From positions 12,338,001 through 12,402,000 of the forward strand of contig NC_073412.1 in assembly GCF_028641065.1 (NCBI RefSeq): a DNA stretch of 64,000 bases, in the 5' to 3' direction. A model generated the notes under the pieces. It was not told the DNA's origin. It did no database searches and saw nothing but the letters and a program-made list of their open reading frames with translations. A program made the translations under genes and the position numbers. The DNA comes from Leucoraja erinacea. Lineage: Eukaryota. Positions 31,106-64,000 of this stretch are shown here, piece by piece; the stretch's first letter is position 1; each line of letters opens with the position of its first letter.

Positions 31106-31226
31106 GAGTGAAAGCTTGACAGCAGAAACCCATTCCGTGCAATCAAATTCTACCTATAAACTGACTAAATCAAGAAGTGAATCAGACTTGTCTCAGCCCG
31201 ACTCAGACGAGGAAGTCTGTGCTTTT
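31106..31226 (+). CDS. HERC1: HERC1 exon (SESLTAE...KSRSESDLSQPDSDEEVCAF)
   Basis: ttcttctag acceptor, TTT|gtgagt donor. Confidence 0.94.
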
Positions 31227-33867: not shown

Positions 33868-33966
33868 TTTCAGTATGTTAAATGACAACACTCTTTTAGC
33901 TGAAATAGCATTCTATTTTATGTGATCTGTGTCTTAAAAGCTCTTAATTTTATTCTTTGTGTAAAG

Positions 33967-34018
33967 AACTCCAGAAGAAATGTGGATATGGATTTAACAT
34001 CAGTTCAACGAAAACGTG
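33967..34018 (+). CDS. HERC1: HERC1 short exon (NSRRNVDMDLTSVQRKR)
   Basis: aag acceptor, G|gtgagt donor; 52 nt keeps the frame; matches recalled RRNVDLDL...RKRG. Confidence 0.88.
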
Positions 34019-35618: not shown

Positions 35619-35887
35619 GACCTCCTTATAGCACCGATTCCCTGAGAACTTCTTGGACGTGGCTGAAATACAGTAGAGATGCATCCTATGATACTTCCCC
35701 CTTGTCTAATACAGTGGAATTTGATTTGAACCAGTCATTCGGAATTCACGCCTTTATTGATAATGTGGTTAATTTTGTGAGTGGAGGCGTTGGCACTTCC
35801 CCAGCTTTTAAAGAGCCCGAAGAAAATATGTCCTCCAATCCTCAAGCCATCATCATTGCAATGGAACAGCAGCAGATGAGGTCTGAG
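35619..35887 (+). CDS. HERC1: HERC1 exon (PPYSTDSL...NVVNFVSG...AMEQQQMRSE)
   Basis: ctccacag acceptor, GAG|gtaagt donor. Confidence 0.94.
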
Positions 35888-36119
35888 GTAAGTAGTAGGT
35901 ATTCGTGTTTGCTTTTTATCGAGTTAAACACGTCAGCTATAATAATGAATATGCCCCATAGATTCACAAGAATTCTGAATTGATACTGGGCAAAATAAAT
36001 ATGAAGAAAGACTTAAAAAGGAACTTCCTTCATTTGACTGCCACAGAGTACAGAACAATATGCTAGAAGTGTTTTGAATGATGGAAAGTTGATAGAAATG
36101 TACTGTTTGCTGTACCTAT

Positions 36120-36755
36120 CACTGGGTACTGGGCCTGTACTCGCTGGAGTTTAGAACAATGAGGGGGGACCACATTGAAACTTACCGAATATACCGAGCC
36201 TGGATAGAGTGGATGTGGAGTGGATGTATCCACTGGTGAGAGAGTTATGCATAGAAACAGGTGTAGGAGTAGGCCATTCGGCCCTTCGAGCCTGCACCGC
36301 CATTTAATATGATCATGGCTGATCATCCAACTCGGTATCCTGTACCTGCCTTCTCCATACCATCTGATCCCTTTAGCCACAAGGGCCACATCTAACTCCC
36401 TCTTAAATATAGCCAATGAACTGGCCTCAACTGCCTTGTGCACCAGAAGCCATAGCCTCAGAATAAAAGGACGTATCTTTAGAAAGGAAATGAGGAGGAA
36501 TTTCTTTGCATGAATCTGTGGAATTTCTTTGGTGATGAATCTGTGGAATTGATTGCCACAGAAGCTATGGAGGCAAAGCTATTCGGCATTTTTAAGGTGC
36601 TCATGGCCAAATTCTTGATTAGCACGGGTGTCGGAGATAATGTGGAGAAGGCAGGAGAATGGGGTTGTGAGGAAAAGATAGATCAGCCATGATTGAATGG
36701 CAGAGTAGACCTGATGGTCTGAATGGCCTAATGCTGCTACTATAACATGAACTTA
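36120..36755 (+). mobile_element. CR1 3' fragment with an opposite-strand CR1 3' end nested at ~36249-36440
   Basis: CR1 3' UTR motifs on both strands. Confidence 0.8.
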
Positions 36756-37265
36756 TCAGGTCATTTCTGGAATGATAGATCACTGGTACAATATTAAATG
36801 GAGGAGATAATTGCTGAGGTGTGTGAGGCTGCAGATCTCATCTTCAGCATTCAATGTCAAATTGGATGGGTACATGAAGGAAAGGATGGTGATGTGATTG
36901 GTAGCAGAGGAGCCAGATATGATTAGACTATTTGCTCATGCAGCCTACTTTGGTAACGGATGTTGGATCCAGTGTCTCAACACTTTTGTGTGGGATATAA
37001 TTAATTTAATTATAACAATTAATCACAGTGAAGTTGTGCTAAAGCTACGGATTCCGTGATCTTTAGCCTCACCAATGGCCTACGATGATTAAACCTCCCC
37101 TCTTTTTCTCTCCTTCCCAAACTAACACCCATGAGGTCCCACCAATCCAAGCCTTGTATCTCATGAATACCTATTGCAGACCAACCTCCCTGCACTCTCC
37201 CACCTCCATACCATGCACAACTTGGACATGACCTTGCCTATTCTATTTTTAAGTAGTTGGCACCA

Positions 37266-37574
37266 GGGCAGCACAGTGGCGCTGCGGTAAAGTTGTTGCC
37301 TAAAGTAGCACCAGAGATCCGGGTTCGATCCTGACCATGGGTGTCTATCTGTTGGTGGTTTGTACGTTCTCCCTGTGACTGCATGGGTTTTCGCCGGGTG
37401 TTCTGGTTTCTTCTCACACTCCAAAGATGTACAGGTTTGTAGGTTAATTGGCTTTGGAAAATTTTTAAATTGTCCCTAGTGTGTAGGATAGTGTTAATGT
37501 ATGGCGTGACCACTGGTCAGCATGGACTCGTTGGGCCGAAGGGCCTGTTTCCGCACTGTATCTCCATACTAAAC
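37266..37574 (+). mobile_element. HE1-like V-SINE
   Basis: gtggcgctgcggt A-box, gggttcgatcc B-box, V-domain. Confidence 0.87.
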
Positions 37575-37749
37575 TAGTTAACATATGTATGAAATTTTTA
37601 AACATGGTGTGCAGTGAAATAATGGTCAATAATCGTTAATGTCAAGTTTATTTTTGGATAAATTTTAATTAATGTTAATGCAAAGAATCAAACTAAATGA
37701 TTAGAATTTAAGATTCTATAACTTCACATTTATGTTTAATGCATTGTAG

Positions 37750-37965
37750 CTTCGACTGGCATCGCTTCATCAAATCCTGGTGTTGCTTTCTGGAATGGAG
37801 GAAAAGGGCAGCCAGTTTGCAGGAAGCAGTTGCCTGGCATCATGGTTCCACTCTGCTTCTTTGCTCACTTCAGTCCGACTGCAATTTCTTGCAGGATGCT
37901 TTGGCCTGGGCACAGTCGGAAATATAGAAATCAACGGTGAAAGTGTTCAACTGCATCACTATCAG
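37750..37965 (+). CDS. HERC1: HERC1 exon (LRLASLHQILVLLSGMEEKG...LHHYQ)
   Basis: ttgtag acceptor, CAG|gtaaaa donor. Confidence 0.95.
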
Positions 37966-37968
37966 GTA

Positions 37969-38197
37969 AAAAAGGACACAAAGCACTGGAGTAACTCAGT
38001 GTTTCAGGCAGCATCCCTGGAGAATATGAATAGGTGACGTTTTGAGTCGGGAACCTTCTTCAGATTCAGTCTGAAGAAGGGTCCTGACCCGAAACGTCAC
38101 CTATCCATGTTCGCGTGAGATGCTGCCCGACCTAGCAAGTTACTTCAGCATTTTTTTTTAATGTAAACCAGCATCTATAGGTCCTTGTTTCTGCATT
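37969..38197. mobile_element. PLE-derived fold-back insertion with hammerhead-like core; 13-bp TSD
   Basis: TSD tcactatcaggta at 37956-37968 and 38198-38210; inverted arms; CTGAAGA...GAAACGTC at 38071-38098. Confidence 0.85.
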
Positions 38198-38339
38198 TCA
38201 CTATCAGGTACACGTTTATTATGAATAGCAAGTCTGCAAGAGAGGAAATAATCTTAAATTCCATGATAACATAAAAATAACATCAACACAGTTAATGAAG
38301 GTAAAAATTTAAGTGCAAATAGGCTCTTTGTTTCTTAAT

Positions 38340-39245
38340 ATAAATTCAAGCGTTTTGCCAAACACTTGCTCAGTCTGCCAAAGCCTATTTGGATCTCCCA
38401 TTTGCTAGCCATTTGAACTATTCTTCCCATTCCCACATCAACCTGTGTCCTTGGCTTCCTCCATTGCCAGAGGGAGACCACACACAGACTGGAGAATCGG
38501 CACCTCGTATTCTGCTTGGGTAGCTTACAACCCAAAAAATAAACATTTAAAATCTTCAATGTTTCCAATTTCTGTTAACTTATCAAAAATTAGAGAAGTT
38601 AATGTTGGGTTTAAGCTACCCAAGAGGAATATGAGGTGCTGTTCCTCCAGTTTGCGCATGGCCTCACTCTGGCAATGGAGGAGGCTTGAATCTTCTACCC
38701 CTAGACTGTCTCCCTTGCTCCATCCAGGGACTCCAGCAGTCTTTCCATGACAGCAGAAGGTTTATGAGCACTTCATCTAACCTCATTTACTACATCCAGT
38801 GTTCCCGATGTGGCCCCCTTACATCGGTGAGACCAAGCGTTGACTTGGAGGCTGTTTTGCCGAACATTTGAGCTTGGTCCGCCTAGACCTACAGAATCTC
38901 CTGGTTCCATCCATTTTAACTCTCCTTCCCATATCCATACTGACCTTTCTGTCCTAGGCCTCCCCCATTACCAGAATGAGGCCACATGCAAACTGGAGGA
39001 ATAGCACCTCACATTCCGCTGGGATAGCTTACTACCCAACATTGAATTCTCCAATGTTGAAGAAGGGTTTCGGCCCGAAACGTTGCCTATTTCCTTCGCT
39101 CCATAGATGCTGCTGCACCCGCTGAGTTTCTCCAGCTTTTTTGTGTAACCATTGAATTCTCCAATGTTGGGCAACCTGACAACCACCCAGCTACCCAGAG
39201 ATGCTGCCTGATCAGCTGAGTTACTCCAGCACTTTGTCTATTTTT
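38340..39245 (+). mobile_element. Rearranged Penelope-like GIY-YIG fragments
   Basis: SSNLIYYIQCSRCG, ETKR, pseudo-LTR pieces. Confidence 0.75.
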
Positions 39246-39717
39246 GTCACATTCGTATTTTCCCGCATGGTTTATAAATGAATATTTCTATATGTTTAAT
39301 GTAAAAATATATTCTCATGAGTAGCTGTTAGAAGTGATTTAGTTTGTCAATCTGGCCCTTTATAACAAATTTGTACACCATGTGTTTTACCCTGACTACT
39401 GGCATTTTTTTTGATTGAGAAGTTAATCATGTGCCTCATCTGCCCTCTGAGATGAATAAAACAAAGGGGCTATGTTGAAGAGGAGCAGAAGTTTTTCTGG
39501 TGATATCATTCCTTCTAGCAATTTTGCTAAACAAATTATCTTCATTTCTTGATAGTTCTGATTTTTCTATTAGTTACTGCATTTCCCTGTGTTATGAGCA
39601 ATGACAGACAATACTTCTCTGCCTGTGAGGTGCTTCTGGATCTAAATTAAACCGTATTTCTTTTCTTTTCAATTCCAGTATGTTTGTAAATATTATTGGT
39701 GTATAGTTAGTGTGTTA

Positions 39718-39935
39718 AGGGCCTGTTCCACTTTCACGACCTAATTCATGACCTTTTTTTACTTGTGGACATTTTTCATCATGTTGAAAAAACGCCCCAA
39801 CCTACTTGATGCCACGAGTACCTACGACTAGCATCACAACTTACCTACGACCTCGTGACGGCTATGCTGCCAGTATGAGTCACGGGCAAACTCGGCAGAA
39901 GTCGTGAATTAGGTCGTAAAAGTGGGACAGGCCCT
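39718..39935. mobile_element. PIF/Harbinger-type MITE
   Basis: TIR agggcctgttccactttcacgacctaattc / gaattaggtcgtaaaagtgggacaggccct; TTA TSD. Confidence 0.85.
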
Positions 39936-39983
39936 TTATAAGATCAATAAATTTTTACCAAACTTTTTAATTTGTTCATTCAG

Positions 39984-40104
39984 GATGGCATAAGAGCTGC
40001 TAAGAGAACCATTCAGATGGACATCCAGGATGCAGTTCACAAGATCTACCAGCAGCTGTCTGCTATTCTTGAGCGGGCTTTACAGGCAAACAAGCACCAC
40101 ATTG
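39984..40104 (+). CDS. HERC1: HERC1 exon (DGIRAAKRTIQ...LERALQANKHHI)
   Basis: ttcattcag acceptor, G|gtaag donor. Confidence 0.95.
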
Positions 40105-41910
40105 GTAAGGGACTGGACTGTATCATAAAAACTGAAAGATATTGAGAAGCTGATTAAACAACGCAATTACAAATTTACTTTCCTCTCTTTAAGCAGCATT
40201 ATTTTTGGAAAGGTTTCAAGAATAAAACTAATGTAAACACATAATTAGCAGGATACTTTACATATAATAATGAATAATATTATTTGCAATATAATTTATT
40301 ATAATGTCATAAACATTAGCAATATAGAATATTTTTTTCCAATTTCCGAATTCTTCATTCTGTTCTGAATCCTCAAACCCTAAATGAAGGAACCCCCAGA
40401 TTATACCAGCGTTCCTTTCCTGATCACTTGTCTGAAGCTGAACTGTTAGTAAGCCGGAAAGTGTGTGGGAGAGAATCGTAGAGATAGCTGTGACAGGAGC
40501 CTCAATGATCTAGTGAGAATGAATGAGTGACCAGCTGGGCTCAACTCAGCTATATTGTTGTGGCTCAAGGATAGGAGAGAAGGCAACCTGAAATGCCCTC
40601 TTCCCACCACACACAAGAAACAGAATATCCATCCCCATCTATCCCGCCAGTCTCCCAAACACTTACTCATCTATACGGGTGTCAATAATTTGGCTGTTTG
40701 TAAACAGGAAGAGATGCAGGTCCAATTCTTTATTCCATTCTAAAATAGCCAACGAACAGAGATTAGAATATGTAGGAAAGAACTGCAGATGCTGGTTTAA
40801 ATCTCTGATAGACACAAAATGCTGGAGTAACTCAGCAGGACAGGAAGAGAAGGAATAGGTGATGCTTGGGGTCAACATCCTCTTCAGACTGATTTATCTT
40901 TTATTTAACATTTAGTTAGCATTTAGCATTCCTGATTTTTTAAAATCCTATATAAAATTGAGATTTCTGTATGTCGATATTGATATCCCACACAACTCTG
41001 CTCTAGGGGCAGAATTAGGTCATTCGGCCCATCGAGCTAGATACAGCTCTAGGGGCTAGTGGAGTCAAGGGATATGGGGAGAAGGCAGACACGGGTTATT
41101 GATAGGGGCCGATCAGCCATGATCACAATGAATGGCGGTGCTGGCTCGAAGGGCCAAATGGCCTCCTCCTGCACCTATTTTCTATGTTTTATGAGGCTAT
41201 TCCACCATTCAATCATGGCTGATCTATCTTTCCCTCTCAACCCTATTCTTCTGCCTTCTCCCTATAACTCCTGACACCTGTACTAATCAAGGATCTATCA
41301 ATCTCTGTCTTACAAAATATCCATTGACTTGGCCTCCACAGCCTTTTGTGACAATAAATTCCACAGATTCACCTCCCTCTAACTAAAGAAATTCCTCATC
41401 TCCTTTCTAAAACTATGTCTTTTTATTCTGAGTCCCGCTGAGTTACTCCAGCTTTTTGTGTCTATCCTTTTATTCTGAAGCAATAGCATCTGGTCCGAAA
41501 CTCTCCCACTAGTGGAAACATCATCTCCACATCCACTCTAACCAGGCTTATTGGTTCTGAACTAGAAGTCCATTTTCTGTCTGTGCATGAAGCTAATGGA
41601 AGTGGGTTGTTGAAGATGAACCAGCGTTTTGTAATTGCTGATCTCTGCCAGGAAATGCCAAGCACCGTTGTAATTTCATAGTTAAATTTATAGATTCCTA
41701 ATGGGATGTTGTGTGTCCCTCCGCTGTGAGTCCAAGTACTCTCGTCTGCTATCTGCTAACATTAGGAAAAAAAGACGCATCTTATTAAATTTGATTTTCA
41801 TACAATGAGTTAAGAATGTTTTATTGTTATATGTCCCAGATAGAACAATGAAATTCTTACTTGCAGCAGCACAACAGAATATGTAAACATAGTACACTGT
41901 AAACAATATA

Positions 41911-42122
41911 ATTATTATTTTCTTATTTATATAGCACATTTTCAGTCAACTTGCATTGACCCCAAAGTGCTTCACATAATTACATTACATTACACACGGG
42001 CACAGGTGGGTGAAGTGTCTTGCCCCAAGGACACAACGACAGTATGCACTCCAAGCGGGATTTGAACCGGCTACCTTCCGGTCGCCAGCCGAACTCTTAG
42101 CCCATTGTGCTATCTGTCGTCC
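41911..42122 (-). mobile_element. tRNA-derived CORE-type SINE with L2-like tail
   Basis: Minus strand: tagcacaatgg A-box, ggttcaaatcc B-box, gttgtgtccttggggcaagacactt CORE-like block, gaagcactttg...tgctatataaat tail. Confidence 0.65.
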
Positions 42123-42160
42123 CCAAAAACGAGAGAGAGAGAGACAAAACGTTCAGTCTG

Positions 42161-42163
<3 letters not shown>

Positions 42164-42245
<82 letters not shown>
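42164..42245. repeat. (AC)n microsatellite, ~41 units
   Basis: Seen directly. Confidence 0.99.
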
Positions 42246-42246
<1 letters not shown>

Positions 42247-42514
42247 AAACAATAATAGTGCAATGAGAACAATAATAGTCTATGCAGCTCGAGCTTATTT
42301 ACCCTTCCCTGCTCTGCAATCACCATTCCCTCTTCCACAGCCTTTCCAAATTGAAATTGTGTGTTGAACTCGTATTTTACATTTTTATAGTGAATTATGC
42401 AAGATATTCTTGAATAAAGAATGCAAATATGTTAGAACTATGGTGGATTAGTGTTTATTAGTATTGTTAACAATGAATGCTCGTATTTTTATTCATGTTT
42501 GATATTCTTTTCAG

Positions 42515-42752
42515 GAGCACAACAACGCCTTTTACTGGTGACAGTTTTTGCACTTAGTGTGCGTTATCACCCTGTAGATGTCTCCTTGGCAATCTCCAGT
42601 GGCTTGTTGAATGTATTGTCCCAGTTGTGTGGCACCGATACTATGCTGGGACAGCCACTGCAGTTGTTACAAAAGCCCGGCATTTCACAGCTCAGCACAG
42701 CGTTAAAGGTAGCCAGCACCAGATTACTTCAGATTCTAGCCATTACCACAGG
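42515..42752 (+). CDS. HERC1: HERC1 exon (AQQRLLLVTVFALSV...RLLQILAITT)
   Basis: cttttcag acceptor, GG|gtaagt donor. Confidence 0.96.
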
Positions 42753-43469
42753 GTAAGTATCATGTTTATTTTTTTTTTATCAGTAATTAGTTTGGAATAG
42801 AAATATTATGGTTGAGTTGATCTGTAAGATCAGAGGAACTGGCAGCCGGTTAGTGTGTATTGAGTATTCAGTAAAATCGCAAAGATCATTCTAAAAGAAT
42901 CCTTAAACTAATTTTTATAAGGAGAGGAAAAAAACCCAAATGTTTATAATGAAAATTTCATCCCAGGCATTTAGTTATCTTCATTCATTCCATGGTAGAT
43001 ACAAATGCGGGAGAAGCTCAGTGGGTGAGGCAGCATCTAGGGAGCGAAGGAATAGAGTCGAGACCCTTCTTCAGATCCTCATTCATCCACGACTCAGTTT
43101 TGGATGTCAGTGTTTGTGTGATTTGGATAATACAGTCTTTTAGCATTAAATAAAATGGTGAAATGTGAGTTATTGTTAAATGAGATGAGCTGAATAACTA
43201 GAATGGTATTCAGACAGTTATGTAAAAGGTGCACCTATCTTTTTTTGTTGGGGTGGGGGGGTAAGTTGATGTAGGCAGATCTGGTTTGCATGTAGTTTTC
43301 AGGGGCAGAAAGATGGTTTCACTTGCACTGAATAGAGTTTTGTGGCTCACTGTTTGGATTAGGCTAACCAAACCTATTACACCCTAATCGTGCTCTCCAT
43401 TGTAACCAGTGGAAGATTTAGATACGCGTAAATCTTTTTTGAACTCTTTCAAGCTTATCCATTCAGCCA

Positions 43470-44690
43470 TCTCTCCTTGGATCCCATGTGATCTAACCTT
43501 CCAGAGCAGCCTACCATGCGGAACCAAGTCGAACGTCTTATTGAACTCCATGTACACAACATCTACAGATCTGCCTTCATCAACCTTTTTGGTCGCTTAT
43601 TGAAAAAAATCAATCAGATTTATGAGACACGACCTCCCACGAACAATACCATGCTGACTATCCCTAATCAATCGTTGCCCATCCAAATGCATGTATATCC
43701 TATCCCTCAGTATACTCTCCAGTAACTTACTAACTACAGATGTTAAGCTCACCAGCCTATAGCTCCCAGCATTTTCCGTGCAGCCCTTCTTGAAAAGAGG
43801 CACAACATTTGCCACCCTCCAGTCTTCCGGCACCTCTCCTAACCATATAACAATTACAGCACGGAAACAGGCCATCTCGGCCCTACAAGTCCATGCCGAA
43901 CAAATTTTTTTTCCCCTTAGTTCCACCTGCCTGCACTCATACCATAACCCTCCATTCCCTTCTCATCCATATGCCTATCCAATTTATTTGGTTAAATGAT
44001 ACCAATGAACCTGCCTCCCAGTCAACTGTTCCTTTCCCATCTAATAACCTGCTCCAGTCAACTTGAGCGAGACCTTCTCTCATACCCTCAAAGTTGGCCT
44101 TACCCCAGTTGAGCATTTTAACACATGGACCCTCTCCGTCCCGATCCATAACTATCTTAAACCTAATTGAACTGTGGTCACTGGTCCCAAAAGGCTCCTC
44201 CACACACACTTCATTAACTTGCCCTTCCCAATTTCCCAATACTTGATCCAGTGTTGCCCTCTCATGTGTGGGGGGGCTCTACATACTGCTTAAGAAAACT
44301 CTCCTGAACACTTTTGAGGAATTGCACCCCATCTGTACCCTTCACGCTATGATTTTCCCGGTCTATATTGGGAATGTTAAAATCCCCTACTGCAACAACC
44401 TTATTTGACCTGCAGCTGTCTGCAATCTCCCGGCACATTTGTTCTTCAAATTCCCGTTGACTATTCGGGGGTCTGTAGTACACCCCCAACAAAGTGATCA
44501 TCCCATTCTTGTTCCTCAGCACCACCCATATAGCCTCACTAGACGAACCGTCCGTAATGTCTGTGGTGGAACAAGGTTGTCTGAATACAGCCGTGACATC
44601 CTCCTTAACCAACAATGCCACCTCCCACCTCTCTTTCCCTCACCTGCCTGTGCCGAAGCTCCTGTACCCTGGAACATTGAGCTGCCACTT
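43470..44690 (-). mobile_element. CR1 LINE ORF2 fragments (endonuclease and RT N-part)
   Basis: YYRPPNS, VGDFN, SDH, VPEDWRVANVVPLFKKG on the minus strand. Confidence 0.88.
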
Positions 44691-45638
44691 GCACGATATG
44701 TTTTGTGAAAAGCCAAATAGACTCTTCAGAATTTCCAGTCCTGAGTCTCGGAAAGTATGCATCCTATAGTAACCCACATTACCTCTTTTTTTTGCCCTTT
44801 TTTTAAGTAGCTTTACCAACCTGTTGTTGAATTTGCTGATGGAGCCATCATCGCAGCTTCCTAGAACTCTTCATTTTGCACACTGACTGCATTCCAAAGA
44901 GTTAGTTTTATAATCATAAATGAATCTGGCACTTTGTAGATTCTCAAAATATGTTGAGCATAGTGAAGGTCAGTGTGTCTATGCTACGCTTTATCATTCT
45001 GCATTCTAAAGTTATCTGAAACCTCAAAAATAGAAACATTCCTAACTCTGCAGTCTCTTCCATAGTTTATGTTATATGTAAATTAGGCCACTCAATCATG
45101 ACAAGATCTATCTTTCCCTCACAACCCCATTCTCCTGCCTTCTCCCAATAACCCCTAACACACAAACTAATCAAGAATCTGTCAATCTCCACATTAAAAA
45201 TATCCATTGAAGGCCTCTGTGGCAATGAATTCCGCAGATTCATCACCCTCTGACTCAAATTCCTCCATCTTGTTTCTCAAAGTACGTCCTTTTATTCTGA
45301 CGCTATGTCCTCTGGTCCCGTACTCTCGCACTAGCGGAAACATTCTCTCCACTATCAAGCCTTTCTTCACATAACCGATATGCCGAATCAAGTAAATTAA
45401 TCTGGTACACTCCTACAAATCCCAACTGCCTTTCTTGAAAATGTATGAAAATGAAGTTATGTTACATTGTGATGCATGGACACCGTATGCACTGCAATGT
45501 AAGCTGAATCTTCCATCCATTAAATGCTGTGGCTCAGAAATCCATGGAGCAGTGTGAAAATGTAATGAACACTAAAATGGTTTCTTTTGCACCATTTCAG
45601 ATTTACAATTGTGCTTCCTTTGTGCTTTATTCTTCTAG

Positions 45639-45811
45639 AACGTACGCAGACAAGCTGAGCCCGAAGGTGGTTCAGTCCCTGTTGGATCTGCTGTGCAGTC
45701 AGCTGAAGAACCTGCTCTCCCAGGCTGGAGTGCAGCTAACACCCTTGCACGGAAACAGAGAGAACAAACTGGATGACACTGGCGAGACTGAGGATGCAAA
45801 GGATTTTCGAG
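45639..45811 (+). CDS. HERC1: HERC1 exon (TYADKLSPKVVQSLLDLLCSQLK...KDFR)
   Basis: tcttctag acceptor, G|gtatga donor. Confidence 0.95.
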
Positions 45812-47006
45812 GTATGAAGCATATGTAGCTTTACAGTACGTGTTAAAATTAAGGGTAGATGAGGTAAAGGGAGGTACATGTAATAATGTGCGGGAGTTAG
45901 CCAATAGACCAAATCACTACAGTTTGAATTCAGTTTGAATTCTACTATGGTAGCCTTTATATGCTCCAAGACCTCATTACCTTTTTGTTCTTCCACTGGG
46001 TTTAATGGGATCTTGTCCAAATAATACATAGAGAGCCATCAGCAGTGTTATATGGCACCAAGATGCCTTTGTGAGTTGGTCTACTTTGCTTGAATTTGGC
46101 CCATATTCCTCTAAATCTTTCCTATCCATATTACTGTCTTTTTAAACAATGTGTGTTCCTGGTTCTACACAGGCACATGAACAGGCAGGGCCAAAGGGCA
46201 TGTTTTATTTCTCTGATTCTAAGTCCTCCTATCTTGGCAACACTGTTGTGAATCCTTTGTGCCTTCAATCTGGATGAATCATATCCTTGCGACCAGACTT
46301 GCACTCAATCTCACCAATGTCTTGCACATGTATAACACGATGCCCCAACTCATGACGGCAATCGAGCCAAACATCTCTACCCCACCCTTTTTGAGTATAA
46401 TGCCACTTTCAGGGAACTATGTACCCGGTGTCTTTCTGTTCTCCAGCATTCTCCTCGTCTCTGTCGGGTCAAAGAGACTACAGGAGACAGACACAAAAGG
46501 CTGGAGTATCTCAGCGGGTCAGGAGGCGGGTCAAAGAATAATAATAAAGTGTTTAAGATTTCTGAAAATTCATTGACCAGGTGCTCAGAAGGAAGCCAGT
46601 TGGCATATCGTTGGCCAGCCAGGGTACTAACCTTCTAACTGAACTAATTTTCTGTGCAGACACCCCCCAATTTCCAAAAGGTATACATTCCTGAAAAATA
46701 TTTCAATCCATGGATTTTAATAAATTGGAAAGGGTGGGCAATGTGCATAAAATATATTTTGATGCAACGTATGCCTATAAGTGAAATTGGTATGCTGTTC
46801 AGACACTAAAATATAAATTAGTAAATGGGGACAGTGCTTTATAGTCAACATTCGTAAATCAAACGTTCATAAATCAAGATCTAATTTTCCTGCCTTCTTG
46901 GCATAAAAGATAAATTGTTGATACCCCGGTTGTAAGCTTTATTGATTTCAGAAATGTGCACAGAATAGAGAAAGCAGTTTATTTAACTCTTATCTTTACT
47001 TTCCAG

Positions 47007-47162
47007 CAATTCTTCGGAAGCAGCACACTGCTGAGCTGCAGCTGGGGGATTTTCTTGTTTTCCTACGCAGAGTTGTGTCTTCAAAGGCTATTCAGTCGAA
47101 AATGGCCTCGCCTAAATGGACGGAAGTGCTACTTAACATTGCGGCTCAGAAGTATTTTTCAG
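47007..47162 (+). CDS. HERC1: HERC1 exon (ILRKQHTAELQLGDFLVFLRRVV...QKYFS)
   Basis: tttccag acceptor, G|gtac donor. Confidence 0.95.
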
Positions 47163-47473
47163 GTACGCAGCTTCTCAGCTCTTGAACGCAGAAACTGGAT
47201 AACATAGGAGAATCTCTCCGGGTGTCTTGCATGGCCATTCTGTTGGCCTTAGAGTGTGGTTAGGAAGCTCTGCATGGCTGCAGCACCTTGTGCTGGAATG
47301 CAGTAATTGTTGCTGTTATATCAGATGGTTTGCAAACAAATTTCAAACTTCTGAAGCTCTTGTTATAGAGATTTATTTTGCACCCATGACAAAATGCATG
47401 CGATATAGAAACGATATATACAGGTACAAAGTTTGAATTCTTATATTTGCTGTTGCTTATCTAATGTTTAATC

Positions 47474-49390
47474 TGAAACTTATAAGATCATTAAGGGCTT
47501 GGACACGCTAGAGGCAGGAAACATGTTCCCGATGTTGGGGGAGTCACAGTTTACAAATAAGGAGTAAGCCATTTAGAACGGAGACGAGGAACTTTTTCTC
47601 ACAGTGGCGAGCCTATGGAATTCTCTGCCTCGGAGGGCGGTGGAGGCAGGTTCTCTGGATGCTTTCAAGAGAGAGCTAGATAAGGCTCTTAAAAATAGCG
47701 GAGTTAGGGGATATGGGGAGAAGGCAAGAATGGGGTACTGATTGGGGATGATCAGCTATGATCACATTGAATGGCGGTGCTAGCTCGAAGGGCCGAATGG
47801 CCCTCTCCTGCACGTATTGTCTATTGTCTATTCTTTTCATTCTACCTCTGCCAATTCATCCAAATTAGCAAAGTGTTGTGGTATATTGTTCAATAATTTC
47901 ATTGCTTCAAGGTCCAGGAACAGCTTCTTCCTAATGACCATCATGGTATTGAACACTAAACCACTTGGGTTGCACGAGGGACTTTGACAATCTCCTATCT
48001 ACCTGTTCAAGAAGGAACTGCAGATGCCGAAAAATCGAAGGTAGACAAAATGCTGGAGAAACTCAGCGGGTGCGGCAACATCTATGGAGCGAAGGAAATA
48101 GGTAACGTTTCGAGACGAAACGTTGCCTATTTCCTTCGCTCCATAGATGCTGCCGCACCGGCTGAGTTTCTTCAGCATTTTTGCCTACCTCCTATCTACC
48201 TGCACATAATCCATATCCCTCCATTCCCAGCATATCCATATGCCTATCCAAAAGTGTCTTAAATCTGCCTCAACCCACCAACCCTGTAAACTTTGCCCCT
48301 CGCACCTTAAAGCTCTGCCCTCTAGTATTAAATTCTTCCATTCGGGGGATAAAGGTTCTGACTGTCTATCCTCTCCGCCTCTCATAATGTTATATATTTC
48401 TATCGGGTCTCCCCGCAGTCTCTGGCATTCCGGAGAACCAATCCAAGACTGCCCAACTTTTCCCTGCAGCTAATGCCCTCTAATCCAGGCAGCATTCTGG
48501 TAACTCTCCTCTGTATCCTTTCCAAAGCCTCCATATCCTTCCTATAATGGGGCAACCAGAACTGCATTCAATACTCCAAATGTGGCCTAACCAGTCTTAT
48601 AAAGCTGCATCATGACTTCCAAACTCTTATACTCAATGGCCCGACCTATGAAACCAAGCATTTTATATACATCCTTACCACTTTATGTACTTGTGTTGCC
48701 ACTTTCAAGAAGTCATGGACTTGGACTCCAAGAGTCCAACTATGTACATCAATGCTGTTAAGGGCCATGCCATTAATTGTATATTTTCTCCATACATTTG
48801 ACCTCGTAAAGTGCTCACACTTGCTCAGTGGAGTTGCACTGCTTAAAATCAAACTTAATTTAACTATTATTTGAAAATGTATATGCTACGCGAAACTGGC
48901 CCTGTGGCAAGAGGAACCAGAAAATGGGCAATACTTGGGCGTTAAGGAAGGTATTTGATGAGACCACACACTCTTGTTTAGAAGGATGAGAGGTGGTTTA
49001 GAAGGAGAGGGAGTTTAGAAGGATGAGAGGGGATCTCATTGAAATATAAGATTGTTAAGGGTTTGGACACGCTAGAGGCAGGAAACATTTTCCCGATGTT
49101 GGGGGGAGTCCAGAACCAGGGGCCACAGTTTAAGAATAAGGAGTAAGCCATTTAGAATGGAGACGAGGAAACACTTTTTCTCACAGAGAGTGGTGAGTCT
49201 GTGGAATTCTCTGCCTCAGAGGGTGGTGGAGGTGGGTTCTCTGGATGCTTTCAAGCGAGAGCTAGATAGGGCTCTTAACAATAGCGGAATCAGGGGATAT
49301 GGGGAGAAGGCAGGAATGGGGTACTGATTGGGGATGATCAGCCATGATCACAGTGAATGGCGGTGCTGGCCTACTCCTGCATCTATTGTC
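47474..49390. mobile_element. Cluster of CR1 3' fragments (47474-47831 +, ~48200-48830 -, 48977-49390 +)
   Basis: CR1 3' coding and UTR similarity to the 7105-7590 copy. Confidence 0.8.
48006..48188. mobile_element. PLE-derived fold-back insertion; 14-bp TSD
   Basis: TSD ctcctatctacctg at 47992-48005 and 48189-48202; inverted arms. Confidence 0.87.
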
Positions 49391-50174
49391 TGGTTGCACA
49401 AGATTAGGTTGTAGATTGCAAGAAGGGCAGGAAAAGTTGGCAGTGGGATATAAGAACTGCCATATGACTGGGCATAAAGGTGATGGATGAGATACAAGCG
49501 GAAGTGCATCATTATTATCAATGTTCATTGGAAGAATGGAAAAGCAGATTTAGTTTTCATAAAAACTGCGACACTGGTATCTTGAGGGATGTGGGGACGA
49601 AGTGTTAAAGCAATATTAATGCCTAAGTTCAGCTGTGAATGGTGAATGGCTCCTGGGTCCAGTGATTACCGAGTTAAAGTGCTGCAAAACTCAACACTGG
49701 TAACCCAATTTAAGGAGCTTTCCCGATGAGAACTTAGATTCACATTGCAGTCCAAATGTATTAGCATTCTGTACTCAAAATGGTTGAGGTAGGCTTCCTA
49801 GACAAATTGATGTAGTGTACTTGGTCTAAGTTGTTATCCCTGGCAAATGTTAATACTGGGATAATGCAAAACTCTGCATCTAGTTCTTCCCTGTGCTGCA
49901 CTAAACACATGTAGAATATGTCTGATAAAGGTTTGCAATTATTAATAAATGCCTCTGCCATTTCAGGAAGATTGTAATGCTCAAAACTGTTCCTTTCAAA
50001 TGTTTCTATATATGTAGATAACATTGAAGCTTATTACGTGTACATTTCTTATAATCAATTACGATTTAGCAGTACACATGATCAAAAGCCACCATTTGAT
50101 TGTTTGCATGAATCTCTTGTGCTTCCTGAATTCATTGCAAACCGCACCAGCAAACCATGTCCTCTGTCGTGCAG

Positions 50175-50281
50175 GTGTCCCACTGGCTGGCAACCTCAGA
50201 ACCAGATTGCTGGCCCTTCATGTTCTGGAGGCAGTGTTGCCTGCCTGTGAGTCGAGTGTAGAAGACGATCAGATGATACAG
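50175..50281 (+). CDS. HERC1: HERC1 exon (VPLAGNLRTRLLALHVLEAVLPACE...QMIQ)
   Basis: gtgcag acceptor, CAG|gtaag donor. Confidence 0.95.
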
Positions 50282-50571
50282 GTAAGGTAGCTACTCTTGG
50301 GAATTATATCTTTAGAGTGGTGTTAGAAATGCTTCCGTATCATGTACTGAAAGGTTGGGATAGTCCTAGCCTCACCTATCTCCTCTGGCAGCTTGTTCCA
50401 TACACTCCGAAAACGTACAGGTTTGTAGGTTAATTGGCTTGGTAAATGTAAAATTGTCCCTAGTGTGTGTAGGATAGTGTTACTGTGCGGGGATCGCTGG
50501 TCGGAGCGGACCCGGTCAGCCAAAGGGTCTGTTTCCACACTGTATCACTAAACTAAACCCAGTTAAGGAAG

Positions 50572-52462
50572 ATGATTGACACAAAAAGCTGCAGTAACTC
50601 AGCAGGACAGGCAGCATCCCTGGAGGGAAGGAATGGGTGACGTTTCAAGTCGAGACCCTTCTTCAGAACGGTTAGGGATAAGGGAAACAAGAGATATAGA
50701 TGGTGATGTGGAGAGATAAAGAACAATGAATGAAAGATATGCAAAAATGTAATGATGATAAAGGAAACAGGCCATTGCAAGCTTTGTAGGGTGAAAATGA
50801 GAAGCTAGTGCCACTTGGGTGTGGGAGGGATAGAAAGAGAGGGAATGCCGGGGCTGCCTGCATTGAGAGAAATCAATATTCATACCACTGGGCTGTAAGC
50901 TGTCCAAGCGAAATATGAGATGCAGCTCCACCAATTTGTGTTTAGCCTCACTCTGACAACGGAGGAGTCCGAGGACAGAAAGGTCTGTGTAGGAATGGGA
51001 AGGAGAATGAAAGTGTCCAGAAATCGGGAGATCAGGTTGGTTCAGGCAGACTGAGCAAAAGGTGTTCTGCCAACCGATTGTCTAGTCTGCGTTTGGTCTC
51101 GCTGATGTAAAGGAGTCCACATCTGTAACAACGGATACAGTAGATGAGGTTGGAGGCCGTGCAAGTGAACCTCGGCCTAACCTGAAAGGACTGTCGGGGT
51201 CCCTGGACAGTCGAGGGAGGACGTATAGCGACAGGTGTTGCATCTTCTGCTATTGCAGGGGAAGGTACCTGTTGAGGGGGTGGTTTGGGTGGGAAGAGAT
51301 GAGAACCAGGTAGTGGCGGAGGGAACGGTCTCTGTGGAAGGCGGAATGGGGTGGAGATGGGAAAATGTGGCTAATCCATCCCGTTGGAGGTGGCGGAAAT
51401 TTTGGAGGATTATGTGTTGTATGTGATAGCTGATGGGGTAAGGACTAGGGGAACTCTGTCTCTATTACGACTAGTAGGAAGCGAGCAAGGGAAGAGCTGC
51501 GGGGTACCAAGGAGACACGAGTGAGGGCCTCATCGATGATGGGAGAGGGGATTCCCCGTTCCCTGAAGAATGAGCTCATCTCAGATGTTCTAGTATGGAA
51601 CACCTCATCTTGCGTGCAGATGCGGCGTAGACGGAGGAATTTGGAGTAGGGGGTAATCTTTGCAGGAAGCAGGGTGGGGAGAAGTGTAGTCGAGATAGTT
51701 GTGGGAGTCAGTGGGTTTGTATTAGACGTCATTCAATAGTCTATTTCCTGTGATGGAGACTGAGCAATCGGGAAAGGGGAGGGTGGTGTGGGAGATGGTC
51801 CAAGTAAATTTGAGTGCAGGATGAAAATTTGTGGTAAAGTTGAAGTCCTTGAGTTCTGCATGGGTGCAGGAGGTAGCAGTAATGGAGATAGAGTTTGGGG
51901 ATAGGGCCAGTGCAGCCTAGAACAGGGATTGTTCAATGTACCCTACAAAGAGGCAGGCATAGCTGGGGCCCGTGCGAGTGCCCATAGCTACGCCTTGGAC
52001 TTGGAGGAAGTGGGAGGAGTCAAAGGAGAAGTTGTTGAGGGGAGGACCAGCTCCGCTGTTAGTAGAGGGAAATTGGATGGTTCTGTGGTCGAGGAAGTAA
52101 CGGAGGGCTTTAAGGCCTTCCTGGTGTGGGATGGAGGTGTAGAGGTGTAGAGTGACTGAACATCAATAGCAAAGATGAGGGAGTGGGGGCTCGGAAAACA
52201 GGTCATTAAAAAGACGAAGGGCGTGCGAGGTATTATTGGACCAGGGGGGTTAGGATGGAGTCGAGGTATGTGGACATAATTTCCATGGGACAGGAGCAGG
52301 CAGAAACAATGGGTCTGCCAGGGCAGTTGTGTTTGTGGATTTTGGGGAGAAGGTAAAACCAGGCTGTGCGGGGCTGGGAGATAATACCGTTGGAGGTTGT
52401 GGAACGCAGACAGCCAGAAGTGATGAAATCAGTAATGGTGTTTGAAATTAAAGCCTGGAAGA
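50572..52462 (-). mobile_element. Penelope-like element, 5'-truncated and decayed: RT, GIY-YIG endonuclease, pseudo-LTR with hammerhead-like motif
   Basis: FYLLPKIHKHNCPGRPIVSACSCP, IDVQSLYTS, PYSKFLRLRRIC, C-terminal LIFRLDSLQPSGMNIDFS; 3' UTR contains CTGAAGAAGGGTCTCGACTTGAAACGTC (minus, ~50639-50666). Confidence 0.9.
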
Positions 52463-52513
52463 TGATTAGTGTGCAGAGTTTACTAAAGTTCTGGTAGTGC
52501 AATAGTGGTTTAC

Positions 52514-52837
52514 TGGGGAGTCCAGAACGAGGGGGTCACAGTTTAAGAATAAGAGGTAAGGCATTTAGGACTGATATGAGGAAAAACGTTTTCACTGAGA
52601 GTTGTGAATCTGTGGAATTCTCTGCCACGGAAGGCGGTGGAGACCAATTCACTGGATGTTTTCGAGAGAGTTAGATTTGGCTCCCGGGGCTTAGGGAATC
52701 AAGGGATATGGGGGGAAAAGCCAGAATGGCGTACTGATTTTGGATGATCAGCTGTGATCATATTGAATGGCGGTGCTGGCTCGATGGGCCGAATGGCCTA
52801 CTCCTGCACCTATTTTTTCTGTCTATGTTTCTATTGT
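52514..52837 (+). mobile_element. CR1 3' end
   Basis: Similar to 7290-7590; ttctatgt-type tail. Confidence 0.82.
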
Positions 52838-52887
52838 CAGGTGCAAAGCACAGTAATTATTTTTGGATGTTTGTATTGTTTTTCCAG

Positions 52888-52998
52888 GTGGTGGAACACC
52901 TATTCTTGCTCATCTCTAATTGCATGTGGGAGGCCCCCATTTCCCAGGCAAAACACACAATTCAGGTCAAGGAGAAGGAGCAGCCAACAAAACTACAG
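52888..52998 (+). CDS. HERC1: HERC1 exon (VVEHLFLLISNCMWE...TKLQ)
   Basis: tttttccag acceptor, CAG|gtac donor. Confidence 0.94.
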
Positions 52999-53889
52999 GT
53001 ACCACACCCTACATGTTCTTGATTAGTACGGGTGTCAGGGGGGGATGGGGTAGAGGGGGAAAGATAGATAGCCATGATAGAATGGCAGAGTAAACTTGAT
53101 GGGCCAAATGGCCTAATTCTGTTCCTAGAACTTATGAACGTATGTTCTTTTACTGACCATGTACATCACCACACTTGTGCATATGACAATACACTTTCCC
53201 CTTTAGTCTTATAAACAATTAATGTATTTTAAATCAGTTCAAACTGAGATTAAAAGTTCAAAATGTAAACCACTGCATGGAAATTGGAAGAGCAATAAGG
53301 ACGTCAATCCGAGTAAAGGAAATGGGATTAAGGCTGCTTGTTGAAGATGTTCATTGTGGATGGATGGCAGGTGGCCAGAACACCAGCATTTGTTTAATGA
53401 CTTATTAGAATAGAACTCAGAAATTTCTACCCGTTTTAAATCTTGACCGTCTATGGATCACTGTCTAATGGCAAATATAAAGCCATATTAAAAAGGACAC
53501 TCGGAGATTTCAGTATAGTGTTTTCGGGTTAGATTCTAATTTGACTATTACTGAAATCCAGGGACCAGCAAATAATTTGTAAAATTTGTAAGGAAGAGAA
53601 TTAGTAAAATAGTGAGTAGAAGTTGGGTGGAATGTGAAATAATAGAAGCATTGCCGCAAAATCGAGAAACAACAAATATTTAAGCATTTCACAATTCACC
53701 TGAATTCCCACAGGTTTATTCACATTTAAAAGTAGGAAAGGAACTGAACTCTTGCTACTGCGGCTCAATGTTTGCAAGATGACCAAAGGATTCCCCCTCC
53801 TGCAGGTTGGGAAGTCCAGATATGTGAGAAACTTTGAGGTTGTGTAGAATTTGATAGCTAGACCCAAATTGGTTTTTTTCCCCCACCTC

Positions 53890-54057
53890 TGTGTATGAAG
53901 GAACTGCAGATGCAGGTTTAAACTGAAGATAGACGCAAAAATCTGAGTAACTCATCGGGCCAGACTGAAGAAGGGTCTCGACCCGAAACTTCACCCATTC
54001 CTTCTCTCCAGAGATGTTGCCTGTCCCACTGAGTTACTCCAGCTTTTTGTGTCTGTC
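53890..54057. mobile_element. PLE pseudo-LTR fold-back copy with hammerhead-like core on +
   Basis: CTGAAGAAGGGTCTCGACCCGAAACTTC at 53965-53992. Confidence 0.75.
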
Positions 54058-54432
54058 TTTATTGCCCCTCTGTTTGCTGACCAACAATGGCCAAGAAAAC
54101 CATTTAAAAAGATTGGGGCTGATTACAAGATGACCTCTGATTACACAGAGGAAGGAGGAACATGAAAGAGGAAAAAACTGCATTGGAGCAATTGGGGAAT
54201 AGAAGAACACTGGCGTGGGGTAGAGAGGAGAGAAAGGATTACCGCGAAGGATATGATGGCAGTGCATCAAAAGGGAGAGTTGTCTGTGGTTGTGGGAGCT
54301 CAGGTGGTCCAGCAAAGGTTTAAATCCAGTCAGACCCCCAGGAAGTGTTTCACTGTCTTGCTCACAGCTGACACTGAAATGTACTTACCTGCTAACTCCA
54401 ATTATATGCTGGTTTATCATGTTTACCTACAA

Positions 54433-54656
54433 CAAGTGTTCCCAGCCTGGGGTAAATTTACCCCCAGAGGATAAATTCCGCCTACCCAGGGGGTAACTGT
54501 GTGGATTTGTACATATTTTTTCCTCATTGATTGACTGTGGTTCTGGTACACCAGTATCTATTCATCATTAGTTGTTCATAAATAAGTGAACAGACATTGT
54601 TAAATGCTATTAAAGTTGCCTGGGGTAAACGGGACGAAAAAGGTTGGGAACTACTG
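54433..54656. mobile_element. hAT (Charlie-like) MITE
   Basis: Imperfect TIR caagtgttcccagcct / aggttgggaactactg; 8-bp TSD acctacaa at 54425-54432 and 54657-54664. Confidence 0.85.
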
Positions 54657-55507
54657 ACCTACAACCTTTCAATCCAAACTAATCATCAACATCTGAGATT
54701 GGATTACATTTATATGTAACAACCACTGACACACCTGTCAAAAACTGCTCATTTCTGTGACCCCCCCCCCCCCCGAAGCACAATCAGTTAAATGTAAATT
54801 AGTTGCCATTGAGTCAATTTGTGTTTATCATTCATGAATCACTGTCCCTCTTCCCTCTCTTGTGTGGAGTTTGAATATTCCTTTAAAGTGAATTGAATTG
54901 ATTGAATATTGTCACATGCAACAAGCCACAGTGACATTCTTTGCTTGCAAACCAAAGGTAGGCAAATAGCTGCTACATAAAGGGTACTGACAAAGTTACA
55001 AAGTATCCTGCACTAAGCCTACCCTTATTCTGCCCCGTCCCCACGGTGGTTTCCACACGTCAAGTCTTCCTTTGTTCTTCCCCCCCCCCCCCCCACTCAG
55101 GGAGGTCCTCCTTTGTGTGTGTATCACACGCCCCTCACAGCGGTCTTCCCATGCCAGATCCTCCAATGTTCCCCGTGGCCCGTGCTCTGTCTCCCACGTG
55201 GCCTGTCCTTGGCGGCCGGCGCCCTCAACGATCGACCTCGATGACTGCTGCACCAAACTCCTCCATGAGCACCGCCGGGTCCCCCCCCCCCCCGGACGAC
55301 TCCGCGGCCCAGGCCCCAGCCGCGGGCTCTGTTGATGCGCGAGGCTCGTCAACCCGCAAGGCTCCCGCCCCAAATGTTGGATCAGGCTTGAATTATGCAA
55401 GTCTGTGCCCGTTGTGAAAACGTTGTTGCCAGGATATATATGTTGTATAATTATCCTGTACTGTTAGAAACTTGCTTAATGATTATATATTTTTGTAACT
55501 ATAATAG

Positions 55508-55684
55508 AAGCAAGGAGAAATAGAAGAAGAAGACGAAAATCTTCCTATCCAAGAAGTATCCTTTGATCCTGAGAAAACTCAGTGTTGTGCGGTGGAGAAT
55601 GGACAAGTACTGACCCATGGGAGTGGTGGAAAGGGCTATGGTCTCGCATCGACTGGCATTGCTTCTGGATGCTATCAGTGGAAG
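55508..55684 (+). CDS. HERC1: HERC1 exon, start of SPRY/B30.2 region (KQGEIEEEDENLPIQEVSFDPEK...GCYQWK)
   Basis: aatag acceptor, AAG|gtac donor. Confidence 0.94.
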
Positions 55685-55831
55685 GTACATCTAAATTAAA
55701 TGCAGAAAATGTAAAACAAATATTTAAGAGTAGCAAATTTTGAATTCTGTCTGCATAGAAATGCGTGCATTGTATTGTGTCACTTTAATATATATTTCGA
55801 GAGTATCACACCTTCCAAATTTCTTTCCTAG

Positions 55832-56071
55832 TTTTATATAGTGAAGGAGAATCGAGGTAATGAAGGCACGTGTGTTGGAGTATCACGCTGGCCTGTGCAT
55901 GATTTCAACCATCGGACTACCTCGGACATGTGGCTGTACAGGGCTTACAGCGGTAATCTTTACCACAATGGTGAACAGACACTGACTCTCTTCAGCTTTA
56001 CACAAGGAGACCACATAACATGCGTCCTCGACATGGAGGCCAGGACAATCTCATTTGGGAAAAACGGAGAG
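55832..56071 (+). CDS. HERC1: HERC1 exon, SPRY domain (FYIVKENRGNEGTCVGVS...ISFGKNGE)
   Basis: ttcctag acceptor, GAG|gtaaac donor. Confidence 0.96.
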
Positions 56072-56685
56072 GTAAACACTCTCAATGTCCTTGGTATTTG
56101 TGAACTCTATATGCCAATAAAAGTGGTTTATTGCAAACATCCCCCCCCCCCCCCCCCCCCCCCCCCCCGCCTCCTCTGCAAATTCCAAACAAATTGCAAA
56201 ATAGGATTAACTTTGAAATTTGAATATAAACAAAAGCATAAAAAAGGAGCAGGAGTAGATAATGCAGCCCTTCAAGCCTGTTGCACCATGTAATGAGATC
56301 ATGGCTATTCATCTACTTCAATATTATGGTCAGCTTTCTCCCCATAAACCTTGAGCGCTCTACTCCAAATAATTCCAACTTTTTAAAAAAGTATATTTAA
56401 TGATTTGGCTTCAACAGCGCTTTGTCAAAGAGAATTTCTTGTTTTCACCTCTCACTGGGAGAAGAAATTTGTCCTCATTTGAGTTTTAAACATCTTACTC
56501 CTTGATCTGCTATGACTCCTCATTCTTGCGCTCCCTGGCATTACGAATGTCCTTCCTGTAACAAACCTTTCCAATCCTGTTTGTGTTGGAGTAGTCTATG
56601 AGATTCGTCAAATGACTCAATCTCTCTCCATTAGTCAGTCTACTACCTCAGGAATCAGTTTTGTGCTGATATCTTAATTGACCAT

Positions 56686-57185
56686 AGATAGATACAAAAT
56701 GCTGGAGTAACTCGGCGGGTCAGACAGCATCTCTGGAGAAAAAAAATAGGTGTTGTTTCGGGTTGAGACCCTTCAGACTGAGAGGCAGGGGAAAGGGGAG
56801 CGAGAGATATAGAAGGTGATGTGGAGAGATATAAAACAAATGAATGAAAGATATGCAAAAAAAGTAACAATGATAAAGGAAACGGGCCTTGCTGTTTGCA
56901 AGGTGAGAATGAGAAGCTGGTGGGGAGGGACGGAGAGAGAGGGAATGCAGGGATTACTTGAAGATCGAGAAATCAATATTCGGACCACTGGGTTGTAAAC
57001 GACCCAAGCGAAATATGAGATGCTGTTCCTTTGTGTTTAGCCTCACTCTGACAATGGAAGAGACCGAGGACAGAAAGGTCAGTGTGGGAATGGGAATGAA
57101 AGTGTTTGGCAACAGGGAGATCGTGTGGGTCCAGGCGGACTGAGCGAAGGTGTCCAGCGAAACATTCGCCCAGTCTACGACCATA
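56686..57185 (-). mobile_element. Penelope-like 3' fragment (GIY-YIG end + pseudo-LTR)
   Basis: RRLGECFAGHLRSV, HFHSHSH, HLIFRLGRLQPSG; similar to 50572-51100. Confidence 0.87.
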
Positions 57186-57939
57186 TCCACACAGGAACGC
57201 CTTCGAACCCACAATGTTTATGTCAAACATGACGCCAATTTAAACTAATCTCTGCTAATAACCTTTCATAATTTATAAAATATGCTCCTCATTTGCAGAA
57301 GATAGACACAAAGCTGGAGTAACTCAGTGGGTCAGGCATCATTTCTACAGAAAAGGAATAGGGTGACGTTTTGGGTCGAGACCTTTATTCAGGTCTTGTA
57401 TTCCCAGTTTATTGACCAGACAGGAAAACTTCCAGGGTTACCCTGCCAACTGAGCTTTTGTTATACCAATCAGACATGATTTATGCCTCTGCCAATGGTG
57501 CTAGTTTACTTTTCTCTCTGCTGGCTAAATAATCTCAGTTGCAATCTATATACCGATAGATTGTAGAACAGGTTGGTGTTGAACCAGGAAGCTTTGCGGC
57601 AAAGGGCACCGTGTACTTTCATGCTTTAATATGCCATTAAGATTCCTTACTGTTGGCTACAGGCTGGAATTAATTATCAGTTGACATGAACATTTTATTT
57701 TAAAGTGCAGCATGCACAGAATATAAACGACTAAAGAGCTGAGAACTCCAATATTTTTCAGACTTTTGTGCAGAAATGCGTTTTTTTTAACATCAGTCTG
57801 GATATTACTGACATTTAATTATGTAATGTGCGCCTGCTGGAAATTGCTTACAGATACAGTTCCAAATTGTTGCTGTTTTCACGGATGTGTTACTGAAGCA
57901 GCTTTTCTTAATTAAATGTCCCACTTTATTTCCATTTAG

Positions 57940-58023
57940 GAACCTAAGTTAGCGTTTGAAGATGTGGATGCAGCAGAGTTGTACCCTTGTGTCATGTTCT
58001 ACAGCAGTAATCCTGGTGAAAAG
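57940..58023 (+). CDS. HERC1: HERC1 exon, SPRY domain end (EPKLAFEDVDAAELYPCVMFYSSNPGEK)
   Basis: catttag acceptor, AAG|gtaa donor. Confidence 0.96.
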
Positions 58024-62965: not shown

Positions 62966-63270
62966 GGGTGACACGGGTGCGCAACTGTAATAGTTGCTGC
63001 CTTGCAATCCCAGAGACCTAGGTTTGATCCTGACTACGGGTGCTGTCTGTACAGAGTTTGTACGTTCTCCCCGTGGCCTGCATGGATTTTCCCCGGATGT
63101 TCCGGTTTCCTCCCACACTCCAAAGAAGTACAGGTTTGTGGGCTGATTGGCTTTAAAATTGTAAATTATCCCAAGTGTGTGTAGGATAGTGTTATTGTGC
63201 AAGGATTACTGGTTGGCGCGGACTCGGTGGGCTGAAAGGTCTAGTTCCGCCCTGTATCTCTAAACTAAAC
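62966..63270 (+). mobile_element. HE1-like V-SINE
   Basis: Same family. Confidence 0.86.
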
Positions 63271-63445
63271 TTAATGATGTTTCTCTCCATGTAAAGCAAA
63301 CAAGTCGTGCATCTGAGCGTGTTTTCAGCTGATATTAGAGTAGATTGTTTTTGCCAATTTTTGCCAATATGGTCAACAAGGGTACGGTAAAAGCAATGTT
63401 GAAGCATGAGCTTGAAGCGAGTAAGCAGGAGCTGCAGCCACACAC

Positions 63446-63523
63446 CCATGTCGGCCAGTCCAATACCTCTGGAATCCACATTCCCAATATATCACTTTCA
63501 CTCGCAAAGTCCTGGCCAAACAT
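63446..63523 (-). pseudogene. HERC1: Antisense, 5'-truncated fragment of a downstream HERC1 exon (MFGQDFASESDILGMWIPEVLDWPTW) with its GT donor
   Basis: Minus-strand translation closely matches recalled human HERC1 MFGQDLTSDNDILGMWIPEVLDWPTW (about residue 2950). TGG is followed by gtgtgt; there is an in-frame TAA four codons upstream and no homology beyond it. Confidence 0.8.
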
Positions 63524-64000
63524 GGTTAAACGTTAAAAATCACTGCACATTGCCATCAGTTGATCTTTCTTCATCTATAGACTTGACTTTGCAAAGATCA
63601 TGGTAGAATGAAGTTATGTAAAATTAGATATATTTATTGACTACAATTTATTAATAATGCAAACTGCACTGAACCAAGCTAAATGGCTAATTACAGTACT
63701 AGAATATAGAGCAGGCCCATCGACCCATACTGTGCCAAACATGATGCCAAGTTAAACTGTTCTCCTCTGCCAGCACATGATCCATATGCCTTTGTTCCCT
63801 CCATATTCATGTGCCTATCTATAAGCCTCTTAAATCCCACAATGTATCTGCCTCCACCACAACCCCTGGCTGTGTGTGCGTGCGTGTGAGACAAAAAGGC
63901 ACTAGTGGATGCCACTCCGTTTGTATTATGTTTTGGGTTTCTTTCCATGTGCACAATGTAAGTGCACTACAATCGGGACTTAAAGACAGATGGCAATAGG

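Follow-up and report, generated by a model that had tools for sequence, protein, structure and literature searches.

An inverted, 5′-truncated HERC1 exon end with its splice donor inside a HERC1 intron

Results

HERC1 is a conserved neuronal ubiquitin ligase. As listed in Table 1, the window (the whole stretch of 64,000 nucleotides analysed here) carries the middle part of this gene on the plus strand, as identified by a window exon matching proteins named HERC1. The in-order exons end within the SPRY region (PDB 4qt6 match). The intron that follows is at least 5.9 kb long, which is comparable to the other introns of this locus (the longest is about 7.3 kb). The earlier note expected the next exon (VKICDMQMRG) to follow on the plus strand, but this exon is not within the window. 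A small HERC1 exon (RRNVDMDLTSVQRKRG) at 33973-34020 was missed by the first tblastn search and was recovered in a later one.

Several other elements were observed along the window. Its repeats look like those of rays or skates. A scaffold gap of 146 N (21765-21910) falls within a repeat-like region of high GC content (about 21150-22000). The 7.3-kb intron holds a long decayed LINE at 4079-7506, presumably of the CR1-like family, in which esterase-like, endonuclease-like, and reverse-transcriptase-like frames were recognized by eye. The region 60741-60885 is 84.6% identical to its own reverse complement and has many relatives in the window; a MITE-like hairpin or a pair of SINE-like heads is the likely identity. 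It has a weak Rfam match to MIR1507, under the gathering score. The Rfam scan of the window gave three sub-threshold miRNA-like matches, none of them inside the inverted piece described below.

Table 1. Features of the host gene, the inverted HERC1 piece, and its flanks.
Feature	Position	Strand	Remark
HERC1 host gene	585..58023	+	about 25 exons in order, placed by tblastn of HERC1 proteins
Last HERC1 exon in order	57941..58023	+	end of the SPRY region; the inverted piece sits in the following intron
SINE-like repeat	62966..63270	+	72-81% like 13 other window matches
TTAA after the SINE tail	63271..63274	+	candidate left end; forms, with 63526-63529, a candidate 4-bp target-site duplication noticed post hoc
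Unique stretch, presumably copied intron	63275..63430	-	no significant homology to distant vertebrates
Splice donor GT (63445-63444) with the start of its intron	63431..63445	-	alike in L001, partly in L002
Last 80 nt of a HERC1 exon from further downstream, 26 intact codons	63446..63525	-	whole exon about 221-227 nt
Right junction, TTAAACGTTAA	63526..63536	+	exon homology stops; no window repeat covers it

An inverted, 5′-truncated HERC1 exon end with its donor is real in the sequence of the intron after the last in-order exon. The minus strand at 63523-63446 translates as MFGQDFASESDILGMWIPEVLDWPTW, and GTGTGT follows directly; the earlier note had given this reading correctly and had also assigned the peptide to HERC1. 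The assignment was borne out in a search with a 41-residue query, which 58 of the 60 candidates passed (E-values from 7e-11 to 9e-8), one of them being named HERC1 (P0049). The genomic read-through ORFs all continue with "WVC" (58 of 58), that is, they read into the same donor. A metagenome scan yielded six loci from 107 stretches. Two of these, L001 and L002, are vertebrate genomic HERC1 loci in which the exon is intact, with a length of 221 and 227 nt, respectively, while L003-L006 are short matches. The piece is 84.2% identical in DNA to the intact exon of L001 (95 columns, E = 4e-23) and 87.4% identical to that of L002 (87 columns, E = 4e-25). What the window matches is the last 80 nt of the exon plus about 15 intron bases. 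Past these bases the intron shows no significant homology, with 29 and 114 of 500 shuffles scoring as well. Thus, of the extent 63271-63545 proposed at the outset, homology is demonstrated down to about 63431, while position 63271 belongs to the tail of a SINE-like repeat starting at 62966.

This piece is the sole minus-strand HERC1 match within the window; the other exons are all on the plus strand. It is also out of order, as had been claimed. The protein P0005 extends 428 residues beyond the last plus-strand exon without containing the peptide of the piece, which puts the source exon 428 residues or more past this last plus-strand exon. The earlier figure of about 750 residues C-terminal of that exon, which is presumed here from human HERC1, goes beyond this computed minimum. 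In the PDB, no HERC1 structure was found that covers the region of the peptide. The protein searches yielded no full-length HERC1, and the Atlas gave no entry.

The first intron bases after the donor are alike across distant vertebrates (63431-63445 of the minus strand, L001 1125-1141, and L002 581-600), and GTGTGT..CTGCAGC is common to the window and L001 at the donor. In the window, L001, and L002, these bases each form a modest predicted stem of -12 to -13 kcal/mol, values taken without a shuffle control. The similarity may reflect a splicing element that has been conserved at the true HERC1 exon.

Further searches addressed the occurrence of the piece elsewhere. A genome scan gave three short bacterial matches among 19 stretches. 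A search of predicted proteins for the read-through ORF of the copy or of the parent gave no candidate, and exact look-ups found none (0 of 2 and 0 of 8); these absences carry no weight. The DNA of 61700-64000 is present, in whole or in part, in 20 of the 24 public sequencing runs listed, from eight studies, and this presence is not specific to the junction. Five of the runs listed (organisms A and B) contain at least half of the words of 61700-64000, and the best of them may be the source sample. None of the runs listed as containing this DNA is an RNA run.

Where is the rest of the exon? The exon homology stops sharply at 63525, in agreement with the earlier description of a truncated copy that ends abruptly. 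Against the minus strand of 63524-63750, the 143-149 nt that are missing from the exon align no better than against shuffled sequences (56 and 79 of 200 shuffles were as good). Protein and DNA profiles of the 5′ part run across the window gave best E-values of 0.17 and 0.03, both elsewhere, and in the protein profile the frames upstream of the ATG rank only 699th, 1112th, and 1380th of 2027 scored. An apparent faint likeness upstream of the ATG, the stretch GATGAAGAA ("DEE"), was considered as a decayed 5′ exon and was rejected by the shuffles and the profile ranks; the weakest shuffle counts were 9-11 of 200 among 10 comparisons. An exon split by a new intron was rejected as well, because a TAA stands in frame three codons upstream of the ATG and no AG adjoins the ATG. 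The sharp mid-exon end, with no 5′ remnant beside it, is what would be expected of a fragment that was copied rather than of an exon that has decayed.

Two simple origins are excluded. A spliced mRNA would read on from the last codon as CAT GT.. ("HVC", as in L001 and L002), while GTGTGT stands there instead. Thus, the retained intron junction excludes a spliced mRNA as the template and rejects a spliced retrocopy. The retained donor had been taken as an argument for a DNA-level event; it excludes spliced mRNA but leaves unspliced pre-mRNA as a template, and patches templated by RNA are reported in PMC5110952. A simple inversion broken at 63525, also proposed earlier, would place the 5′ part of the exon on the plus strand between 58024 and 63445. 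That part is not there: no significant match to it was found in 58030-63445. The preceding exon and the two following exons of the source exon are likewise absent from the window.

By self-comparison, the nearest repeats end at 63279 and start at 63735, so that the right junction at 63525 lies in unique DNA, more than 200 bp from either. No fold-back was found across it, the longest exact inverted match being 8 nt. The junction shares no direct repeat of at least 8 nt with 58030-63445, and the matches of 5-7 nt do not exceed the chance expectation. No poly(A) was found, the longest T runs on the plus strand of 58030-63445 being 6 nt, and no target-site duplication of 5 bp or longer was established. 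The near-palindrome that had been noticed at the stop of the homology is there, but it is weak by itself: a 6-nt palindrome lies within 12 nt at 839 of 9120 sampled positions (9.2%). A pair of TTAA within 12 nt occurs less often, at 16 of 9120 positions, but this feature was chosen after the fact. A TTAA pair at the SINE end and at the junction has a chance of 0.7-3% under strict ends and of 11% under loose ends, and it was noticed post hoc. Perhaps this pair is a duplicated target, which would define a 251-bp insert at 63275-63525. The target site of the SINE itself accounts for it as well. ACTTAA flanks the SINE-like repeat at 62960-62965 and at 63269-63274 as a candidate target-site duplication.

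How old is the piece? Its 26 codons differ from L001 and from L002 by eight synonymous and three non-synonymous codons each. Among 61 homologues, F6 is the only residue that is unseen (at most one unusual residue in 26), and it may stem from decay or be the normal residue in this species. The decay amounts to about 1.5% per non-synonymous site (one change per 65 sites), with a 95% bound of about 7%. Because decay is nearly absent, the piece is either young or a true exon misplaced by the assembler; both fit the same data.

Discussion

The explanation I lean towards is a recent templated insertion from later in HERC1, generated by template switching or break repair and probably neutral. A replication fork or a broken end in the host intron would have switched to the opposite strand further down HERC1, copied a few hundred bases there, and returned to the original site. 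Such an event may have been a switch of the FoSTeS/MMBIR type, or else end-joining in which a patch was copied from a template. The junction would then be real DNA, the insert would span about 251 bp (63275-63525) between the two copies of a duplicated TTAA, and the intact parent exon would lie 12 kb or more downstream. The antisense fragment left behind would be ignored by the spliceosome, and the host intron would be spliced normally since the piece is antisense. The mid-exon cut, the exon joined to its own intron, the junction in unique DNA, and the orderly host gene speak for a templated insertion. On the other side, the near-pristine piece equally fits a misassembled true exon, and the left end is only a candidate.

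An assembly chimera is the first rival to be weighed, and I consider it rather unlikely. The true downstream exon and a stretch of its intron could have been misjoined in inverted orientation, or a contig end could have been flipped. The nearly pristine state of the piece fits such an error, the assembly is scaffolded (the 146-N gap), and the left side of the piece adjoins a SINE-like repeat, a usual site of misjoins. However, the right junction lies in unique sequence without a gap or fold-back, which would be atypical of a repeat-driven misjoin, and about 25 other exons are in order.

It is improbable that the insertion, while real, was templated by RNA. In that case, a LINE enzyme would have reverse-transcribed an unspliced HERC1 pre-mRNA, and the product would have served as a patch. 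The 5′ truncation and the run from exon into intron fit a nascent transcript, LINE reverse-transcriptase remnants are plentiful in the window, and RNA-derived patches that include intronic sequence are reported in PMC5110952. Against this, poly(A) is lacking (T runs of at most 6 nt on the plus strand of 58030-63445), as is an established target-site duplication of 5 bp or longer, and a same-gene template would more simply point to local DNA switching.

Could the piece act on its own transcript? A functional antisense element, in which the copy pairs with the end of the parent exon and its donor, thereby hiding the donor or looping out the intervening exons, and tunes exon skipping, circle formation, or A-to-I editing, is quite improbable. 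The predicted duplexes are strong, at -141 and -137 kcal/mol with the distant L001 and L002 exons and at -201 kcal/mol with a perfect partner over 95 nt. The CHM gene offers a precedent in which skipping of exon 12 was observed and a hairpin predicted (PMC8756506). However, the partner is estimated to be 12-25 kb away in HERC1, against a loop of 274 nt in CHM. This estimate uses 40.9 bp per residue, which gives about 12 kb as a minimum (428 residues) and about 25 kb for the presumed residue figure from human HERC1. With so distant a partner, the host intron would probably be spliced out first, and pairing must compete with its removal. Moreover, a duplex over the donor would block, and not help, back-splicing from that exon. 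By masking the donor, such a duplex would rather favour the skipping or circularization of preceding exons. The boldest form of this idea is a fixed long-range antisense "clamp", kept in related species, on a donor 12-25 kb downstream, which would loop exons out and cause regulated skipping or circular RNA; it seems just as improbable.

The least probable alternative, the edge of a larger rearrangement in which an inverted block with the true exon starts in 58024-63445, a second break lies at 63525, and the HERC1 allele is broken, draws on the undefined left end (up to 5.4 kb of the intron could be an inverted block) and on the absence of the next plus-strand exon from the window, but it requires two events, a single inversion being excluded, and the preceding exon and two following exons of the source are absent from the window.

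Templated insertion also agrees with what is known from other loci. In human CHM, a 1,752-bp inverted duplication of exon 12 with microhomologies was attributed to FoSTeS/MMBIR; the duplication was pathogenic, skipping of exon 12 was observed, and a hairpin with a 274-nt loop was predicted (PMC8756506). As in this case, a HERC1 exon end is inverted within an intron of its own gene together with splice signals, a replication-based origin can be proposed, and a hairpin is possible. Unlike in CHM, where a whole exon lies 693 nt downstream of its parent with validated junctions, the HERC1 piece comprises 80 nt plus the donor, lies upstream of its parent by an estimated 12 kb or more, and is known from sequence alone.

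Templated insertions of 73-414 bp have been described in cell lines; those of class 2 lack poly(A) and long duplications, bear marks of end-joining, and leave the donor site intact, and RNA can serve as a template (PMC5110952). The HERC1 piece is like class 2 in being copied, short, and similar in size, without poly(A) or a clear long duplication. It differs in that those insertions come from distant loci and were confirmed by PCR, their donor sites being intact, whereas here the template is of the same gene and the parent lies beyond the window. By analogy, the HERC1 piece may belong with CHM-type and class 2 insertions. It shares 5′ truncation and an antisense position in an intron with processed retropseudogenes as commonly understood and with class 1 templated insertions (PMC5110952). 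In contrast to both, it retains an intron junction and has neither poly(A) nor a duplication of 5 bp or longer. In a literature search for HERC1 inversion, exon duplication, and circular RNA, no report of this piece was found among the papers listed, as judged by titles or the starts of abstracts.

ADAR editing-complementary sequences and inverted-repeat loop-outs involve intronic sequence that is complementary to an exon. The HERC1 piece is like the editing-complementary elements, in sequence, in being intronic and complementary to the end of an exon and its donor, but its estimated partner is not close by.

What the piece means depends on its origin. Should it be an assembly error, it would point to a faulty spot in the HERC1 model. 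If it is neutral, it is a further example of the small inverted copies that are left in large genes by repair and replication, with no use beyond that of a marker. It would matter more if it were fixed and altered splicing, since it would then be a natural test of the distance over which an exon can still pair with its antisense copy while transcription is under way. If the clamp were true, HERC1 would possess a built-in splice switch that arose from a repair scar.
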